A stretch of DNA of 64,000 nucleotides, taken from contig OZ242010.1 of assembly GCA_965204745.1 (NCBI GenBank), positions 928,001 through 992,000 of the forward strand, in the 5' to 3' direction. Of the stretch, positions 11,081-63,400 are shown piece after piece. Below the pieces are notes generated by a model that ran no database searches, was not told the origin of the DNA, and was given only the letters and a program-made list of their open reading frames with translations. Made by a program: the position numbers and the translations under genes. The DNA comes from Candidatus Latescibacterota bacterium (GTDB lineage Bacteria; Latescibacterota; UBA2968). Numbering within the stretch: the first letter of the stretch is position 1; each line of letters begins with the position of its first letter.

Positions 11081-11161
11081 AGTTGTCGGTTGTCAGTTGT
11101 CAGTTGTCAGTTGTCAGTTGTCAGTTGTCAGTTGTCAGTTGTCAGTTGTCAGTTGTCAGTT
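11081..11161. repeat. Heptamer tandem array (AGTTGTC), about 11 copies
   Basis: Direct reading; abuts the hemB start. Confidence 0.95.
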
Positions 11162-22555: not shown

Positions 22556-22646
22556 CTACTGACCGCTTGGAACGTTCGGGCGAGCACGGGACATCGCCCA
22601 AAAAGGTGAGAGGTGAGAGGCAAGACGTGAGAAAGCCACCCCTCTT

Positions 22647-22704
22647 GTATCTTGGAAGAAAGGGTTAATTAGGTGTTGCGCCCTCGCATCGAGACAAGCC
22701 ATCT
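22647..22704 (+). mobile_element. IS110 left-end stub (58 bp)
   Basis: 54/58 identical to 28886-28943; preceded by the same CCCCTCTT target half. Confidence 0.85.
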
Positions 22705-24091: not shown

Positions 24092-24242
24092 CAGTAGTCA
24101 GTAGTCAGTGGTCAGTGGTCAGTGGTCAGTGGTCAGTGGTCAGTGGTCAGTGGTCAGTGGTCAGTGGTCAGTGGTCAGTGGTCAGTGGTCAGTGGTCAGT
24201 GGTCAGTGGTCAGTGGTCAGTGGTCAGTGGTCAGTGGTCAGT
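24092..24242. repeat. Heptamer tandem array (CAGTGGT/CAGTAGT), about 21 copies
   Basis: Direct reading. Confidence 0.95.
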
Positions 24243-26493: not shown

Positions 26494-28689
26494 ATGACCA
26501 ATAATTCTCATACCGCCGAACGGCTCACCCCGTTGCATCGCATCAAACTGTTGCTTCTAGCGGGGTTGATCGCCTTGGGTACTTTTGTGCAGTGCGGGCA
26601 ACCCGAACCCGAACCCGTGTCCGAGCCAGCGTCGGCGTCGCGGCCCAAGTACACCGGCGACCTTCCACAGTTGCAGGAACGCGGGGCCTTGCGCGTGATC
26701 GTGCGCCCGGATCCGATCAGCCACATGCCTCGTCGGGCAGAGCCGGTGACCCTGAACCACGACATCGCCAATGGCCTGGCAGAAGCCTTTAAGGTGAAGT
26801 TGGAACTCGTCAATGCCGAGAATTACGCGCAGATGATCGACAAACTCCTCGAAGGTGAGGGCGACATCATCGCCGCCAGCTTGACCGTGACGCCAGAGCG
26901 CGAACAGGTCGGGGCGTTTTCCGTGCCCTATCTGTACGTGGATGAGTACTTGATAACAGCAACCGGGGACAGCCTGCCGCAGACCATAGACGAACTCGCG
27001 GGCATGGTAATCAGCGTGCGGCAGACGAGTTCGTATCATCAAACCCTAGTTGATATTCAGAAGCGCGTCCCGTCTTTGACCATCCACGCCGCGCCCGAAT
27101 CGCTCAGCACCACAGCGCTGATCGACGGCGTCGCGCACGGCAAATTCACCGCGACCGTCTCCGACGCCCACATCTGGCAAGCCGTGTCCAGCTATTACGA
27201 CAGGTTGGCGACCCCACTCGTGCTGGCTGAAAATCGCCCCATCGCCCTGATGATGCGGCCCGGCGATGTGAAGCTCAAAGAAAAGGTGGATGAGTTCCTG
27301 CTCGCATACCAGTTCACGCGCCATCGGCAACAGACATTTGACGACGACCTGAGCGGCCTGAAAAAACGCCGGCGGTTGCGGATGATCACGCGCAACAATG
27401 CCATGACCTATTTTATCTACCGCGGCCAGCAAGTGGGCTTTGAATACGAACTCATGAAAAAATTCGCGTCCGAACACGACTTGCGCCTCGAAATCGTCAT
27501 TCCAGACAGCCATGCCGAACTGCTCTCGTACTTGAACGCGGGCAAGGGCGACGTCGTGGCCGTGGCAATGACCATCACCGAAGAACGGCAAGCGCAGGCC
27601 GCATTTACCCTGCCCTACAACGAGGTGGAAGAACTGGTGGTGGTGCGCGAAGAGGACCATTCAATTACCAGCTTGAAGGATTTGGCCGGGAGAACCGTCC
27701 ATGTGCGCGAGAGCTCTTCGTTTCACACCACCCTGACCGCGTTGCAAAATTCTATCGGCGGCCTCGAGATCGCGGCGGTTGCCGACCATATTGAAACCGA
27801 AGATATTTTGGCCGGGGTGGAAGCGGGCAAATACGATATTACGCTGTGCGACTCCAATTTGCTCGACGTGGAACGCGCTTATGGCCGCCGCCTCAAAGCC
27901 GCCTTCAGCATCAAACCCACCGCGTTGGGCTGGGCCGTGCGAAAGGACAATCCGGAATTGCTGGCCGCACTCGATCAATACATCGCACGCGAAAAAGGCG
28001 GTTTGTTTTTCAACATGATGAAAAAGCGGTATTTTCAGAACAAACGCGCAGTCGCCAGAGCCAAGGATTCCCTGCGGGTCGATCTGGGCGGGAAGTTGTC
28101 GCCTTATGACGACCTCGTCAAAAAGTACGCGTACCAATACGGGCAGGACTGGCGGTTGACCACCGCGCAGATGTACCAGGAATCCAAATTCGATCCCAAA
28201 GCCGTCAGTTGGGTCGGCGCGCAGGGCCTGATGCAGGTGATGCCGAGAACGGGCCGGCAGTTGGGATTCACCAAACTTTACGAACCCCACGAGAGCATCC
28301 ACGCGGGCGTGAAGTACATGCATCAACTCATCAACCGGTTCGATCACAACTTGCCAATGGACGAGCGGATTCGCTTCGCGCTGGCTTCGTACAATGTCGG
28401 GTACGGTCATGTGCTCGACGCCCGCCGCTTGGCGCGAGAAAAGGGATGGAATGCGGACCGCTGGTTCGGTCATGTGGAACGGGCCATGCGCCTGCTCTCC
28501 CAACCCGCTTACTACAAACGGGCGCGATACGGCTTTTGCCGCGGCAACCAACCCGTACACTACGTCGAGAACATCCAGAGTTTTTACGACGCGTATGTCG
28601 AAATCCTGAGCACGACCACGCCCACAACTCTGCCCCTCGTCGCGGGCTTCATCGGACGCCCATCCGCTATAACGCAACCGCATCGCTGA
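26494..28689 (+). CDS. MltF-like lytic transglycosylase with two substrate-binding domains
   Basis: Two SBP_bac_3-like domains; YQESKF, GLMQV and ASYNVG SLT motifs. Confidence 0.88.
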   Translation: MTNNSHTAERLTPLHRIKLLLLAGLIALGTFVQCGQPEPEPVSEPASASRPKYTGDLPQLQERGALRVIVRPDPISHMPRRAEPVTLNHDIANGLAEAFKVKLELVNAENYAQMIDKLLEGEGDIIAASLTVTPEREQVGAFSVPYLYVDEYLITATGDSLPQTIDELAGMVISVRQTSSYHQTLVDIQKRVPSLTIHAAPESLSTTALIDGVAHGKFTATVSDAHIWQAVSSYYDRLATPLVLAENRPIALMMRPGDVKLKEKVDEFLLAYQFTRHRQQTFDDDLSGLKKRRRLRMITRNNAMTYFIYRGQQVGFEYELMKKFASEHDLRLEIVIPDSHAELLSYLNAGKGDVVAVAMTITEERQAQAAFTLPYNEVEELVVVREEDHSITSLKDLAGRTVHVRESSSFHTTLTALQNSIGGLEIAAVADHIETEDILAGVEAGKYDITLCDSNLLDVERAYGRRLKAAFSIKPTALGWAVRKDNPELLAALDQYIAREKGGLFFNMMKKRYFQNKRAVARAKDSLRVDLGGKLSPYDDLVKKYAYQYGQDWRLTTAQMYQESKFDPKAVSWVGAQGLMQVMPRTGRQLGFTKLYEPHESIHAGVKYMHQLINRFDHNLPMDERIRFALASYNVGYGHVLDARRLAREKGWNADRWFGHVERAMRLLSQPAYYKRARYGFCRGNQPVHYVENIQSFYDAYVEILSTTTPTTLPLVAGFIGRPSAITQPHR

Positions 28690-28707
28690 GTGACGCGGTT
28701 GACCTAT

Positions 28708-28756
28708 CAAAAAAAATGAGAGGTTGCGACGAACTCGAGCGCGACCTCTCATTTTT
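28708..28756. terminator. Terminator-like hairpin
   Basis: AAAAAATGAGAGGTTGCG...CGCGACCTCTCATTTTT. Confidence 0.65.
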
Positions 28757-28790
28757 AAGTTACTGACCACTTGGGCGGCGATGGGCGGGG

Positions 28791-28848
28791 ACTGACCACT
28801 GACCACTGACCACTGACCACTGACCACTGACCACTGACCACTGACCAC
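28791..28848. repeat. Heptamer tandem array (ACTGACC), about 8 copies
   Basis: Direct reading. Confidence 0.9.
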
Positions 28849-28899
28849 TTGTTTCTTGCCTCTCCCCTCTTGCGTCTCCCCTCTTGTATCTTGGAAGTA

Positions 28900-29095
28900 A
28901 GGGTTAATTAGGAGTTGCGCCCTCGTATCGAGATAAGCCATCTTGATGCCCGGCTCGGGGAAGGCCGGCCCCTCTTGAAGGCGATGACCTTGTAGGTAAG
29001 ATAGGCCCCCCGACCGCCGGGTCTATGCCGAAGAGTATCTAAGTCCCTTGAGGCTGCATATACAAGACCGGTAGACTTGGCGTCAATGGTCGGGA
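28900..29095 (+). ncRNA. IS110 bridge RNA (target and donor loops); 5' end approximate
   Basis: Target guides CCCCTCT (28969-75) and AGGTAAGA (28994-29001); donor guides AGAGTATCT (29032-40) and ATACAAGA (29060-67); each pair flanks a hairpin inside a closing stem. Confidence 0.8.
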
Positions 29096-29149
29096 TCGAA
29101 CTCGAGCGCACACCAGACCCCTTACAACCCCTCATCACAGGAGGCCCCC

Positions 29150-30157
29150 ATGTCGAAATCTCAACCCGCTTTCGCCGGCATTGATGTCAGTGCCCGCACG
29201 TTGTCTGTTGCCCTGTCCAGACCCGGACAAGCTGTCATGCAAGCGACCTTTGCCAATGATCCCCAAGCCCATAAGCGGTTGCTGAAGTGGCTCACCAAGG
29301 GCGGGCACATGGTCTCTGTGTGCCTCGAAGCGACCGGGCTTTACAGCTTGGGGGTGGCCTTGGCCTTGCATCGGCATCGCCACACAAAGGTCATGGTCGT
29401 CAATCCCAAAGCGATGAGCAAGTACGGTCAAGCCCGCATGCAACGAGCCAAGACGGATGCGAAGGATGCGTTGTTGATCATGGATTATGCCGAGCGCATG
29501 CCGTTTGTGCCTTGGCAAGCGCCGAGTGAGCAACGGCTTCAACTGCAAGCCCTCACCAGACGCATTGACCAACTCAAGCAGGTGATCATCAGTGAACAGA
29601 GCCGCAACCACGCGCAAAGCTACCACATCCTGAGCACACGGCGCATCGCACGCGATATTCAGGTGAATATTCGACACCTCAAACGCCGGATTGCATACTT
29701 GGAAGACCAAGCCCTCGATCTCGTTTTGCACGATGAGACCCTCAAGCGCGCCTACCAACGCCTCTGCTCGACGCCTGGCATCGCACAAACGAGCGCCTTG
29801 CGGCTCTTGGCCGAGTTGACCCTTTTGCCTGAGGAGATGCAACCGCCCCAGTGGGTCGCACATGCAGGCCTGGATCCCAAACCCAAACAATCCGGAACCG
29901 CCAACCCACAAAGACGCATCTCGAAAACCGGGAATAAGTACCTCCGCCATGCCCTCTATATGCCTGCCTGGGTGGCCATCAGACACGAAGTCCATGTCAA
30001 AGCCTTCTATGACCAACTCATTGCCCGCGGCAAGAAACCTTTGCAGGCTATCGTTGCGGTGATGCGAAAGTTGCTCCATTCAATCTGGGGCATGTTGCGG
30101 CATGACCAAGATTTTGAGGGCGAGAAATTCTATCGAATCGCCCCGCAATCCCCTTGA
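29150..30157 (+). CDS. IS110 DEDD recombinase/transposase
   Basis: GIDVS, LEATG, KTDAKDA, QSG serine motif and GNKYLR. Confidence 0.96.
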   Translation: MSKSQPAFAGIDVSARTLSVALSRPGQAVMQATFANDPQAHKRLLKWLTKGGHMVSVCLEATGLYSLGVALALHRHRHTKVMVVNPKAMSKYGQARMQRAKTDAKDALLIMDYAERMPFVPWQAPSEQRLQLQALTRRIDQLKQVIISEQSRNHAQSYHILSTRRIARDIQVNIRHLKRRIAYLEDQALDLVLHDETLKRAYQRLCSTPGIAQTSALRLLAELTLLPEEMQPPQWVAHAGLDPKPKQSGTANPQRRISKTGNKYLRHALYMPAWVAIRHEVHVKAFYDQLIARGKKPLQAIVAVMRKLLHSIWGMLRHDQDFEGEKFYRIAPQSP

Positions 30158-30291
30158 CCTTTAAGAGAGTATCTTACCTCTCCCGTCTTCCGTCTCACCT
30201 TTTACCACTGCCCGCCTTTGAACGGGCTATCGCCAGTTGTACCCCTTTTGTGCCTTTTGTGCCTTTTGTGGCTAAACTTTCATCTCACCTT

Positions 30292-31290
30292 TTACCGCTC
30301 TTGCACCAATTTCTCGAACTCTGAAGTCATCTTTTCCACGAACCCATCCTCTCGGCGCACGATCATAAACGCGGCCAAGCCGCGGGCTTCTGCAAATGCA
30401 AATCCCCTTTCCGGCCCCATCACGTTGATCGCCGTCGCCAAGCCATCCGCGTACAGGCAACTCGGATGCACCACGGACACGGACGCCAAGCCGTGCGTAA
30501 TCGGTCGGCCCGTGCGCGGGTCAAGGGTATGCGAATACCGCACCCCATCGCGTTCAAAATAATTGTGGTAATCCCCAGACGTCGCCAACGACATGTTTTT
30601 CAGTGCCAGCACCTTTTGCAACGCGCCCGGTTCTGTGGGACTCGCAATGCCGACCCGCCAGCGTTGGCCGAGGTGATTGCGTCCCTTGGTCCGCAACTCG
30701 CCGCCGATTTCGATAAAATAGCCATCCACGCCCAAACTATCCAAATAGCTCGCCACGCGGTCCACGCCAAAGCCCTTGGCTATCGCAGACAAATCGCAAT
30801 AAACCCCACCCACCTCTTTTTTGATCGCAGACGCAGACCGATCCACGCGAACCTTCTCGTAGCCCACCCGCGCTTTGCGTGCGGCTATCGAATCCGGCGG
30901 TGGCACGCGGTTCGGGATGGCGTTTGGGCCAAAGCCCCACAAATTGACCAATGGCCCAACTGTGACGTCAAACGCGCCATCGGACCAAGTGCTGATTTGA
31001 TGGGCAACGCGCAAAACCCGCGCAAAGTCCGGCGAGACGCGCACCCAGTTAGTCGAGCGCGAACGATTAAAGCGGCTGATCTCCGAATCCTTTCGATACG
31101 TGGACATCTGCCGGTTCACCTCGTCCAACCGCGCATCGATCTCCCGCGCCAATACCCGTGCGTCCAACGCGACCTCATCCCGCGCGATCTTCACCTGAAA
31201 CGTCGTCCCCATTGTCGAACCCGAGATCGCCATGAACGGCTCATCGCATCCGGCGAGGACAACCATCAAGATTGAAACCACCCAGCGCAT
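30292..31290 (-). CDS. apbE: FAD:protein FMN transferase
   Basis: TMGT, GAFDVTVGPL, DLSAIAKG, ATSGDY, YSHTLDPRTG and ADGLAT motifs. Confidence 0.95.
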   Translation of the reverse strand: MRWVVSILMVVLAGCDEPFMAISGSTMGTTFQVKIARDEVALDARVLAREIDARLDEVNRQMSTYRKDSEISRFNRSRSTNWVRVSPDFARVLRVAHQISTWSDGAFDVTVGPLVNLWGFGPNAIPNRVPPPDSIAARKARVGYEKVRVDRSASAIKKEVGGVYCDLSAIAKGFGVDRVASYLDSLGVDGYFIEIGGELRTKGRNHLGQRWRVGIASPTEPGALQKVLALKNMSLATSGDYHNYFERDGVRYSHTLDPRTGRPITHGLASVSVVHPSCLYADGLATAINVMGPERGFAFAEARGLAAFMIVRREDGFVEKMTSEFEKLVQER

Positions 31291-31361
31291 TTCGCATCTC
31301 GCAAAAAAAAGCGGAGCCCGGCGCGCCGGCACTCCGCTCGTCGTGTTGGTCTATGACGACA

Positions 31362-50791: not shown

Positions 50792-51007
50792 TCTCACGTC
50801 TCACGTCTCACGTCTCACGTCTCACGTCTCACGTCTCACGTCTCACGTCTCACGTCTCACGTCTCACGTCTCACGTCTCACGTCTCACGTCTCACGTCTC
50901 ACGTCTCACGTCTCACGTCTCACGTCTCACGTCTCACGTCTCACGTCTCACGTCTCACGTCTCACGTCTCACGTCTCACGTCTCACGTCTCACGTCTCAC
51001 GTCTCAC
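50792..51007. repeat. Heptamer tandem array (TCTCACG), about 30 copies
   Basis: Direct reading; perfect array. Confidence 0.96.
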
Positions 51008-54715: not shown

Positions 54716-54883
54716 GGTAAGAGGTAAAAGGTAAGAGGTAAGAGGTAAGAGGTAAGAGGTAAGAGGTGAAAGGTAAGAGGTAAGAGGTAAGAGGTAAGAG
54801 GTAAGAGGTGAAAGGTAAGAGGTAAGAGGTAAGAGGTAAGAGGTAAGAGGTGAAAGGTAAGAGGTAAGAGGTAAGAGGTAAGA
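54716..54883. repeat. (AAGAGGT)n array with a 42-bp higher-order unit
   Basis: [(AAGAGGT)5 GAAAGGT] three times; abuts the IS110 right end. Confidence 0.93.
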
Positions 54884-56176
54884 TACTCTCTTAAAAGGTC
54901 AAGGGGTTTTCGGGGTGATTCGATAGAATTTTTCGCCCTCAAAATCTTGGTCATGGCGCAACATGCCCCAGATCGAATGGAGCAACTTTCGCATCACCGC
55001 AACGATAGCCTGCAAAGGTTTCTTGCCGCGGGCGATGAGTTGGTCATAGAAGGCTTTGACATGGCCTTCGTGTCTGATGGCCACCCAGGCAGGCATATAG
55101 AGGGCATGGCGGAGGTACTTATTCCCGGTTTTCGAGATGCGTCTTTGTGGATTGGCGGTTCCGGATTGTTTGGGTTTGGGATCCAGGCCTGCATGTGCGA
55201 CCCACTGGGGCGGTTGCATCTCCTCTGGCAAAAGGGTCAACTCGGCCAAGAGCCGCAAGGCACTCGTTTGCGCGATGCCAGGCGTCGAGCAGAGGCGTTG
55301 GTAGGCACGCTTGAGGGGCTCATCGTGCAAAACGAGATCGAGGGCTTGGCTTTCCAAGTATGCAATCCGGCGTTTGAAGTGTCGAATATTCACCTGAATA
55401 TCGCGTGCGATGAGACGTGTGCTGCGGATGTGGTAGCTCTGCGCGTGGTTGCGGCTCTGTTCGCGGATGATCTCCTGCTTGAGTTGGTCAATGCGTCTGG
55501 TGAGGGCTTGCAGTTGAAGCCGTTGCTCGCTCGGCGCTTGCCAAGGCACAAAAGGCATGCGCTCGGCATAGTCGAGGATCAACAACGCATCCTTCGCATC
55601 CGTCTTCGCCCGTTGCATGCAGGCTTGGGCGTACTTGCTCATCGCTTTGGGATTGACGACCATGACCTTTGTGTGGCGATGCCGATGCAAGGCCAAGGCC
55701 ACCCCCAAACTGTAAAGCCCGGTCGCTTCGAGGCACACAGAGACCATGTGCCCGCCCTTCGTGAGCCACTTCAGCAACCGCTTATGCGCTTGGGGATCAT
55801 TGGCAAAGGTCGCTTGCATGACAGCTTGTCCGGGTCTGGACAGGGCAACGGACAACGTGCGGGCACTGACATCAATGCCGGCAAAAGCGGGGTGAGATTT
55901 CGACATGGGGGCCTCCTGTGATGAGGGGGTTGTAAGGGATCTGGTGCGCGCTCGGGGTCGCGTCCCGACCATTGACGCCAAGTCTACCGGTCTTGTATAT
56001 GCAGCCTCAAGGGGCTTAGATACTCTTCGGCATAGACCCGGCGGTCGGGGGGCCTATCTTACCTACAAGGTCATCGCCTTCAAGAGGGGCCGGCCTTCCC
56101 CGAGCCGGGCATCAAGATGGCTTATCTCGATACGAGGGCGCAACTCCTAATTAACCCTTACTTCCAAGATACAAGA
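54880..56176 (-). mobile_element. IS110-family element, copy 2
   Basis: Same ends and bridge loops as copy 1; reconstructed target CCCCTCTTACCT. Confidence 0.93.
54899..55906 (-). CDS. IS110 DEDD recombinase/transposase
   Basis: Near-identical to 29150-30157. Confidence 0.96.
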   Translation of the reverse strand: MSKSHPAFAGIDVSARTLSVALSRPGQAVMQATFANDPQAHKRLLKWLTKGGHMVSVCLEATGLYSLGVALALHRHRHTKVMVVNPKAMSKYAQACMQRAKTDAKDALLILDYAERMPFVPWQAPSEQRLQLQALTRRIDQLKQEIIREQSRNHAQSYHIRSTRLIARDIQVNIRHFKRRIAYLESQALDLVLHDEPLKRAYQRLCSTPGIAQTSALRLLAELTLLPEEMQPPQWVAHAGLDPKPKQSGTANPQRRISKTGNKYLRHALYMPAWVAIRHEGHVKAFYDQLIARGKKPLQAIVAVMRKLLHSIWGMLRHDQDFEGEKFYRITPKTP

Positions 56177-56415
56177 GGGGAAAGGGTTGGTTAGTCCCAG
56201 TTCATCCTCAAGTTGTCAGTTGTCAGGCCGCCCCCCATCACCCGTAGGGACAGGCCCCTGTGCCTGTCCTCAGTCCTCGGTTAGTCGCTTCGTCATTCCG
56301 ATGCACGCGCAAGCACAACGTCGGTAATTCAGTGACTTGTGTTTTTCGCCTTTCCCATCTCACGTCTCACGTCTTGCCTCTTGCCTCTTACGTCTCGCCT
56401 CTTACCTCTTGCGTC

Positions 56416-62798: not shown

Positions 62799-63400
62799 TG
62801 CGGGTAGTTGTTTCTCAAGTGAAATTCTCGAATCCCTCCCGTGTTTAATCTCGCAAATTTGAGCGCAAGGTCAACCAATATCTCATCCTGACCCGCGTCT
62901 TTCATCCGCGTTCATCGGTAACTCCCCTGCCTTTCGCTACTGAATAACCGCTTCAGCACATGCTTTGCCCGTTACCTTTCTGCGCCCTTCGCCCCACCTG
63001 CGTCGCCCAATCCGCGCAATCCGCGCAATCCGTTTAATCCGCGATTCAGACTTGTTTGAGGTTGTGAAATGGGGAAAAGTGGCTATATTTGTCGCAAGGC
63101 CAACCACTGACCGCTTGAGGGTTCGGGGCGGGGCGGACTGACCACTGACCACTGCTTCGGGCGAGCACGGGGGCACCGCCCAAAAAGGTGAGAGGTGAGA
63201 GGCAAGACGGGAGAATACTTACACTCACTGCTCGCCTTTGAACGGCCTATCGCCATGTACCCCTTTTGTGTCTTTGAACTGGCTATCGCCAGTTGTACCC
63301 CGCTCGTGGCTATCCTCGCCTCTCGCCTCTTGCCTCTCGCCTCTCGCCTCTTGCCTCTCCCCTCTTACGTCTCACCTTTTACCCCTGACCAAGGAATCCC

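Follow-up and report, generated by a model that had tools for sequence, protein, structure and literature searches.

An IS110-group insertion sequence in a Latescibacterota genome with a predicted bridge RNA matching a unit junction of tandem heptamer arrays

The window, a stretch of 64,000 nucleotides from a Candidatus Latescibacterota bacterium (assembly GCA_965204745.1, contig OZ242010.1, positions 928,001 to 992,000 of the forward strand), contains an insertion sequence (IS) of the IS110 group at 28882–30175. A first-pass annotation, made from the letters alone, had placed an IS110 element there, and its bounds and all its other coordinates proved correct (Table 1). The element holds a single long open reading frame (ORF), with 265 nt of non-coding sequence before it and 18 nt (30158–30175) after it. 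The genome (5.48 Mb, one contig) carries 52 full-length copies and about 20 fragments, and an ORF of at least 335 aa is intact in 51 of the 52. By identity to the window copy they comprise 8 copies of type A (100%), 39 of type B (about 96%, with 30 identical to each other) and 5 of type C (88–89%). A megablast search of a plasmid collection gave no match to the element.

The ORF product matched two recombinase domains of Pfam, PF01548 (82.2 bits, cutoff 29, E = 4.6e-23) and PF02371 (71.7 bits, cutoff 21.3, E = 6.6e-20), and the NCBIfam model NF033542, "IS110 family RNA-guided transposase" (211.9 bits, cutoff 140). Only two solved structures were related at E <= 0.001, the ISCro4 transposase (9t56, E = 7.9e-41) and the IS621 transposase (8wt6, E = 1.9e-36). 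Alignment placed D12, E60, D103, D106 and S248-G249 opposite D11, E60, D102, D105 and S241-G242 of IS621, whose PDB chain numbering is two higher than that of the paper. In the available text of PMC11208158, those D, E, D, D and S residues form the composite active site of IS621. Assignment of the protein to the IS110 family, as a DEDD/Ser recombinase, is supported by these comparisons.

The sequence TCTT is common to both junctions of the window copy, leaving the element ends ambiguous by 4 bp. At the left junction the sequence is ...tctcccc|TCTTGTAT, at the right AGAGTATCTT|acct; joining the flanks gives CCCCTCTTACCT, and joining the IS ends gives AGAGTATCTTGTAT. The target reconstructed in this way by the first-pass annotation recurs at the second copy in the window, of type B. 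The core was located with a divergent copy elsewhere in the genome, G000:1297033, in which the left end shows TCTT, the right end TCTC, and both target guides carry the matching change. The letter after CT is target-derived at its right junction and element-derived at its left junction, which fixes the core as CT, as had been proposed, and places it at 28883–28884 and 30173–30174. Most copies show the shared TCTT, and copy G000:1297033 confines the exchange to CT. Donor and target have this CT in common, without a longer target duplication, which is the pattern of the IS110 group.

The left non-coding end encodes a predicted bridge RNA. Four guide strings had been read in it, CCCCTCT (28969–28975), AGGTAAGA (28994–29001), AGAGTATCT (29032–29040) and ATACAAGA (29060–29067), and all four were found at these positions. 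The first two, in the first internal loop, match the target obtained from the joined flanks, and the other two, in the second internal loop, match the donor obtained from the joined IS ends. In each loop the 5' side is sense to the left target or donor, the 3' side is antisense to the right target or donor, and the core is present in all four guides. In 5000 shuffles of the left-end interior, the observed match lengths (8, 8, 9 and 8) were reached individually in 165, 194, 21 and 118 cases, respectively, and never all four together; the four lengths add up to 33, and no shuffle exceeded 30. In the window's genome and in a related genome, G082, the CT of the left target guide lies one nucleotide farther from the inner hairpin than in G091, G128, G101, G120 and G151 (columns 85–95 of the left-end alignment A1), so that one extra guide letter matches the target past the core.

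The positions of the guides stood, and their extents required one adjustment: the last A of the right target guide and of the right donor guide fits a handshake role better. According to the available text of PMC11208158, IS621 nucleotides immediately 3' of the core-binding AG in each loop pair, after strand exchange, with positions 6–7 of the other DNA. On this model A29001 would face T at donor position 7, and the corresponding pair in the relative G097 is G facing C. The donor-loop handshake can form a Watson–Crick pair with the base that precedes the target core in 7 of 11 lineages, with all four nucleotides represented, and forms a wobble pair in 2 of 11. Overall, the handshake nucleotides showed complementarity to position 7 of the non-cognate DNA.

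Analysis of 17 left ends by RNAalifold gave 35 base pairs, 16 of them with compensatory changes. The structure tested was a hand-cleaned version with 37 pairs, from which predicted guide–guide pairs had been dropped and to which the basal stem of the donor loop had been added; the alignment was not fitted to the structure, and the structure was chosen after the alignment had been seen. It consists of a closing helix, a target module and a donor module, in this order, each module comprising a stem, a 5' guide, a small hairpin, a 3' guide and the returning strand of the stem. In this structure 91.1% of cells were paired, against 28–50% when the partners were slid by 1–3 columns, and 15 pairs had changes on both sides. 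Shuffles reached the observed value in 0 of 500 cases on four of five measures and in 23 of 500 on the fifth. The closing helix (helix 1) has 5 pairs, 3 with changes on both sides, and 90.6% of cells paired, while helix 5, in the donor module, has changes on both sides in 9 of 13 pairs. Misalignment of distant relatives makes helix 4 the weakest (78.2% paired). This covariation supports the two-loop RNA architecture and bears out the IS621-type bridge architecture of the first-pass annotation. The single-sequence fold, unremarkable in stability (z = −0.80) and with guide–guide pairing in its minimum-energy form, was set aside in favour of the alignment-based structure.

RNAalifold also paired letters of the left and right target guides (A1 columns 90–91 with 113–114, corresponding to window positions 28972–28973 with 28995–28996), and these columns covary; the first pair is C-G in 13, U-A in 2 and A-U in 1 of the 17 left ends. 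This covariation may reflect pairing in the free RNA or a regularity of the natural targets.

Table 1 Features of the element, its predicted bridge RNA and related sites in the window.
Feature	Position	Strand	Remarks
IS110-group insertion sequence, first-pass bounds	28882..30175	+	1294 bp; 8 identical copies, 39 at ~96%, 5 at 88-89%
CT core, left copy	28883..28884	+	fixed by copy G000:1297033
Left non-coding end, encodes predicted bridge RNA	28885..29149	+	265 nt
Candidate -10 box TATCTT	28887..28892	+	TGTATCTT or TGTACCTT kept in all relatives; putative function
Two 5' hairpins	28900..28923 and 28925..28949	+	single-sequence prediction only; region poorly conserved in alignment A1
Closing helix, 5' strand	28954..28958	+	partner 29102-29106; brackets both loop modules
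Target-binding module	28963..29007	+	outer stem GGCC 28963-28966/29004-29007; inner hairpin AAGG 28978-28981/CCTT 28988-28991; helices 2, 3
Left target guide CCCCTCT and one further T	28969..28976	+	sense of target -6 to +1 (0 = core T); core CT at 28974-28975
Right target guide AGGTAAG	28994..29000	+	antisense to CTT(A/G)CCT; T28997 opposite A or G
Target-loop handshake positions A, T	29001..29002	+	complementary to donor positions 7 and 6 (T, A); model from available text of PMC11208158
Donor-binding module	29009..29094	+	stems 29009-29030/29069-29094; inner hairpin 29042-29045/29052-29055; helices 4-6
Left donor guide AGAGTATCT	29032..29040	+	sense of IS right end 30166-30174
Right donor guide ATACAAG	29060..29066	+	antisense to CTTGTAT at IS left end
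Donor-loop handshake positions A, C	29067..29068	+	A29067 complementary to T preceding target core
Closing helix, 3' strand	29102..29106	+	partner 28954-28958
Ribosome-binding site GGAGG	29140..29144	+	read from sequence
Recombinase gene, 335 aa	29150..30157	+	catalytic D12, E60, D103, D106, S248
Candidate -35 box TTGACC	30154..30159	+	right end; overlaps stop TGA 30155-30157
CT core, right copy	30173..30174	+	fixed by copy G000:1297033
Second window copy, type B	54880..56176	-	1297 bp, 96% identical; abuts 24-unit GGTAAGA array (54716-54883)
Empty near-cognate site CGCCTCTTACCT	56396..56407	+	1 mismatch to A/B guide; left half fits type C guide
Empty near-cognate site CCCCTCTTACGT	63359..63370	+	1 mismatch

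All genomic copies were collected and their flanks compared, as the first-pass annotation had advised, and most of the type A and B copies (A/B) share a single kind of junction. The sequence CCCCTCTT(A/G)CCT is used by 37 of the 47, and arises where a TCTCCCC unit meets a TCTT(A/G)CC unit in TCT-type heptamer arrays. The annotation had named CCTCTTA-type repeats as the target; the heptamer arrays are upheld, and the guide fits the unit junction rather than the CCTCTTA repeat as such. Pure runs of TCTTACC contain 4 of the 47 copies, each with 2 mismatches. By individual site, 20 A/B copies lie at CCCCTCTTACCT, 17 at CCCCTCTTGCCT, 4 at TACCTCTTACCT, 2 at TCCCTCTCACCT, 2 at CCCCTCTCCCGT, and one each at CCCCTCTTGCCC and CCCCTCTTACTT. 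TCT-type arrays of at least 3 units number 656 in the genome, against 18 in a reversed-sequence control, and at least 2 tandem units are abutted by 49 of all 52 copies.

Occupied and empty sites were counted genome-wide, the counts representing surviving insertions and not rates. Perfect sites with A at position 9 are 80% occupied (20 occupied, 5 empty), and those with G at this position 21% (17 occupied, 65 empty; Fisher p = 1.2e-7). Occupancy is 0.5% for one-mismatch sites (2 occupied, 413 empty; p = 5.8e-26 against perfect sites) and 0.3% for two-mismatch sites (6 of 1779, leaving 1773 empty); a further 2 copies occupy three-mismatch sites, a class in which empty sites were not counted. The A/G ambiguity at position 9 fits the U that would be encoded at 28997, which could pair with A and form a U.G wobble with G. 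The left loop runs on as ...CTTG and matches the G sites one letter further. Both near-match empty sites reported in the window by the first-pass annotation are present, each one letter off.

The target-loop guides differ between lineages of the element within the genome, and the flanks differ with them. Type C copies carry CGCCTCT in place of the CCCCTCT of A/B, and AAGTAAGA in place of AGGTAAGA. A left flank of CGCC was found in 3 of 5 type C copies and 0 of 47 A/B copies (p = 4.5e-4), and a right flank of ACTT in 4 of 5 and 1 of 47, respectively (p = 9.1e-5). Copy G000:1297033, with guides TCCCTCTC and AGGTGAGA, lies at TCCCTCTCACCT, its junctions reading cttccc|TCTT...TATCTC|acct. A decayed fourth lineage is represented by a partial copy at 1433016 and three similar left-end remnants; its loop guide is CCCCCCTT, and its left flank and junction read ttcccCCT. 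Across 24 elements of 12 lineages, the longest exact matches of the target-loop guides to their own left and right flanks summed to a mean of 12.96, against 6.81 for 488 non-cognate pairs. Covariation of the target loop with the natural insertion sites, both within the genome and across genomes, is supported by these sequence comparisons.

The sequences of the fourth lineage (G000:C1:1433016-1433889, 921770, 2089468, 1263485 and 5088855) are 87–89% identical, with one 63-nt remnant at 98%. Their reconstructed target, ...ATTCCCCCT|TCCTCGCAGGCACAGGCG..., is not a heptamer array, and resembles sequence in the flanks of the G082 relatives.

Homologues at E <= 1e-30 were found in 12 of 168 genomes of the phylum, including that of the window, and left ends and flanks were read at 21 loci in nine other genomes. 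The relatives keep the RNA scaffold, while the letters flanked by GGCCG and GAAGG and those preceding AGAT vary by lineage. The donor loop (AGAGTATCT and ACAAG) is nearly invariant; the target loop is the most variable part, and within it the columns of the left target guide (28969–28976) vary most. The available text of PMC11208160 describes this pattern too, with a poorly conserved first loop and a highly conserved second loop. The element of G091, a genome of the same genus, also targets heptamer arrays, at a different junction, TCGCCTCT|CCCG, and the elements of G082 and of more distant genomes aim at other sequences. In G041 (L038, L047, L052), two of three copies read ...CAT|TGTAT on the left and TATCT|AACG on the right, with a left guide ending in CAT, and the first core letter seems to differ between the two junctions.

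Taken from the sequence evidence, it is very probable that this is an autonomous IS of the IS110 group that chooses its insertion site through a bridge RNA encoded in its own left end. Support comes from the protein family and catalytic residues, the conserved RNA fold, the guide–flank matches and their covariation, and site occupancy. In the proposed mechanism, loop 1 would pair with both target strands around the CT core, with CCCCUCU(U) as the sense of the left half and AGGUAAG as the antisense of the right half. Loop 2 would pair likewise with the joined right and left IS ends through AGAGUAUCU and AUACAAG, following which a recombinase tetramer (DEDD/Ser) would exchange strands at CT. The programmed target would be CCCC-T-CT-T(A/G)CCT, equivalent to the TCTCCCC/TCTT(A/G)CC unit junction in the intergenic heptamer arrays, which would account for nearly all copies having the same register and the same orientation with respect to the repeat. 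The A/B RNA would prefer CCCCTCTTACCT, use CCCCTCTTGCCT less, and reject CGCCTCTTACTT and TCCCTCTCACCT, and the loops of type C and of copy 1297033 would switch this preference.

Several observations weigh against site choice by a bridge RNA. Imperfect sites hold 10 of the 47 A/B copies (2 with one, 6 with two and 2 with three mismatches). One copy, 602779 (G000:C1:602779-604074, L011), has type-C-like guides and sits where the guides of copy 1297033 predict, which suggests an RNA acting in trans, or later recombination of the left end. The left-guide matches of the G082 relatives are weak (longest common run 3–7), the donor-loop handshake is mismatched in G151 and in the decayed fourth lineage (2 of 11), and the left target guide is offset by one nucleotide in the loop relative to most relatives. 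As a single sequence the RNA folds no more stably than shuffles (z = −0.80), its minimum-energy form pairing both target guides with each other, and a scan of 28500–30500 against Rfam gave no match at E <= 1, Rfam 15 possibly having no bridge RNA model. A promoter scan detected no promoter-like site upstream of the RNA in the integrated copy, the sole site lying inside the ORF and the count being at chance level, which leaves expression of resident copies unexplained.

These points were weighed together with three other explanations. The recombinase might read the heptamer junction by protein–DNA contacts alone, the left-end strings being coincidental or regulatory. The flanks are indeed conserved beyond the 12 nt matched by the guides (T, C, T at −9 to −7 and C, T, T at +6 to +8), and the unremarkable single-sequence fold would suit such a protein; however, wider conservation is expected from the 7-bp periodic context, guides and flanks change together (in type C, 1297033, 1433016 and nine other genomes) while the protein scaffold stays constant, and the four guide matches arose together in 0 of 5000 shuffles, making recognition by protein alone extremely improbable. 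The arrays might instead be generic sinks that tolerate any insertion, with enrichment reflecting the survival of neutral insertions, as the 49 of 52 copies abutting at least 2 tandem units would allow. Tolerance of insertion in arrays probably does explain the persistence of copies, but it does not account for the use of one register, one orientation and one unit junction, nor for the occupation, within the same arrays, of 35% of perfect sites (37/107) against 0.5% of one-mismatch sites (2/415), and as an account of the insertion pattern it is highly unlikely.

The remaining alternative, that the element belongs to the IS1111 group with a 3'-encoded seekRNA, and that the left-end strings are no guide, draws on membership of the same superfamily and on the shared pair of Pfam domains. 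At 18 nt, the right non-coding end is far shorter than the left (265 nt), the reverse of the long, RNA-carrying right end of IS1111, a group that also has long subterminal inverted repeats, and a long left end carrying the RNA is the mark of the IS110 group in the available text of PMC11208160; the probability of an IS1111 assignment is close to nil.

Tentatively, and with the balance leaning somewhat against it, natural reprogramming of the guides may be driven by target sites running out. Sub-lineages A/B, C, copy 1297033 and the decayed fourth lineage, all in one genome, have the same donor guides and differ at target-loop guide positions as well as by scattered changes in the left end, each lying at its own unit junction or repeat. 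The main lineage has filled 20 of the 25 perfect Watson–Crick sites and now uses wobble and mismatched sites. On this reading the arrays, which differ between close relatives, would keep supplying new junctions, and guide and repeat would co-evolve. As the donor loop is common to all sub-lineages, one could mobilise another in trans; copy 602779 has flanks that fit another copy's guides.

Transcription of the RNA may start from the joined ends of the element. Joining the right end to the left end would set the candidate −35 box TTGACC 17 nt before the candidate −10 box TATCTT. A TTGAnn hexamer lies 15 nt before the core end in the five relatives whose string is shown in full, and four other strings begin at TGA. 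In the available text of PMC11208160, the IS621 bridge RNA is transcribed from the end-to-end junction, and by analogy we infer the same for this RNA.

The element was compared with known systems, the statements on these being drawn from the available text of the papers cited. It resembles IS621 of Escherichia coli (PMC11208160, PMC11208158) in its DEDD RuvC-like and Tnp domains with aligned catalytic D, E, D, D and S, and in an RNA encoded in a long left end with a variable target loop and a conserved donor loop. Both have two internal loops, with 5' sides sense, 3' sides antisense and the CT core in all four guides, handshake positions beside the core-binding AG, −35 and −10 boxes split between right and left ends (candidate boxes here), and a target that is a repeated intergenic sequence. 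Unlike IS621, which targets the palindrome of repetitive extragenic palindromic (REP) sequences, this element targets the junction between units of tandem heptamer arrays, and the proteins are distantly related (phmmer, 129 bits). The guides comprise 5 nt, CT and 1 nt on the left and CT and 5 nt on the right, against a nine-base left and a four-base right guide in IS621 (PMC11208160). The 52 copies in this genome are a further difference from IS621. A closing helix supported by covariation brackets both modules here. The ISCro4 bridge recombinase (PDB 9t56), compared by protein only, has the nearest sequence among the solved structures (E = 7.9e-41, residues 7–332). ISPpu9 (PMC12288879) and ISPpu10 (bioRxiv 10.64898/2026.03.19.712850) of Pseudomonas putida are likewise IS110-family elements whose insertions fall at one position of an intergenic repeat present in many copies; they aim at palindromic REP-type units or at a single conserved intergenic sequence, whereas here the target is set by the order of units in a tandem array. 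A limited full-text literature search found no report of an IS110 element that targets tandem arrays of heptamers.

The mechanism is the published one, first described in 2024, and is unchanged by this element. New in detail are the unit-junction target in tandem heptamers, the near-saturation of perfect sites and the natural set of guide variants. The 52 near-identical copies, the empty cognate and near-cognate sites and the sister lineages with altered guides amount to a natural specificity profile of a bridge recombinase, with strong discrimination against single mismatches, tolerance of one U.G wobble, and freely varying positions visible. A unit junction within a tandem array is also a new kind of target beside the REP or single conserved intergenic sequences described in the available text of the cited work. 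The element, young and apparently active, belongs to an uncultured Latescibacterota lineage, and with its predicted guides already readable it is a candidate tool and may be programmable, as the first-pass annotation proposed.

The window copy lies between a lytic-transglycosylase-like ORF (26494–28689) and an ApbE-like ORF (30292–31332, minus strand), and several arrays adjoin it. The orthologous spacer in G082 (L066) is about 110 nt long and has neither array nor element, while in G091 (L065) the spacer orthologous to 28690–30291 has other arrays and its own related IS110 copy at a different unit junction. Because these spacers differ, arrays and insertions turn over between close relatives, which is what a renewable target needs. 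The "renewable safe harbour" of the first-pass annotation is a reasonable inference, consistent with the 656 arrays, the many near-cognate sites and the differences in arrays between relatives.

Contigs from four sequencing runs of four studies were compared with 28300–30800. In one contig of run X5, 28881 is joined to 30172 as in an empty site, with 4 shared letters and a shorter side of 30 letters; joints of 28885 to 30173 with sides of 24 letters occur in contigs of X1, X5 and X8. These joints were discounted as evidence of insertion polymorphism, the flanks being heptamer repeats present at many loci and the sides being short. No circle junction of right end and left end was among the contig joints listed, rare forms being invisible in contigs. 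Part of the element is without cover in the contigs of X8, and nothing was concluded from this gap.

A solo left-end remnant of 62 nt, 93.5% identical, is present at 22643–22704 of the window (G000:950643-950704), with the flank ...gccacccc|TCTTGTATC, and other left-end-only and right-end-only remnants occur elsewhere in the genome. At G000:C1:1121590-1124183 (L006, L014), a type A and a type B copy stand head to tail with a gap of 3 bp (ACC); the site taken by the A copy, TACCTCTTACCT, arose immediately next to the B copy's right end. Unrelated arrays in the window are found at 50792–51007 (TCTCACG, 30.9 units), 24092–24242 (CAGTGGT, 21.6 units), 54716–54883 (GGTAAGA, 24 units), 11081–11161 (AGTTGTC, 11.6 units) and 28791–28849 (ACTGACC, 8.4 units), and a 9-mer array (CCTTTTGTG, 3 units) lies at 30244–30270.

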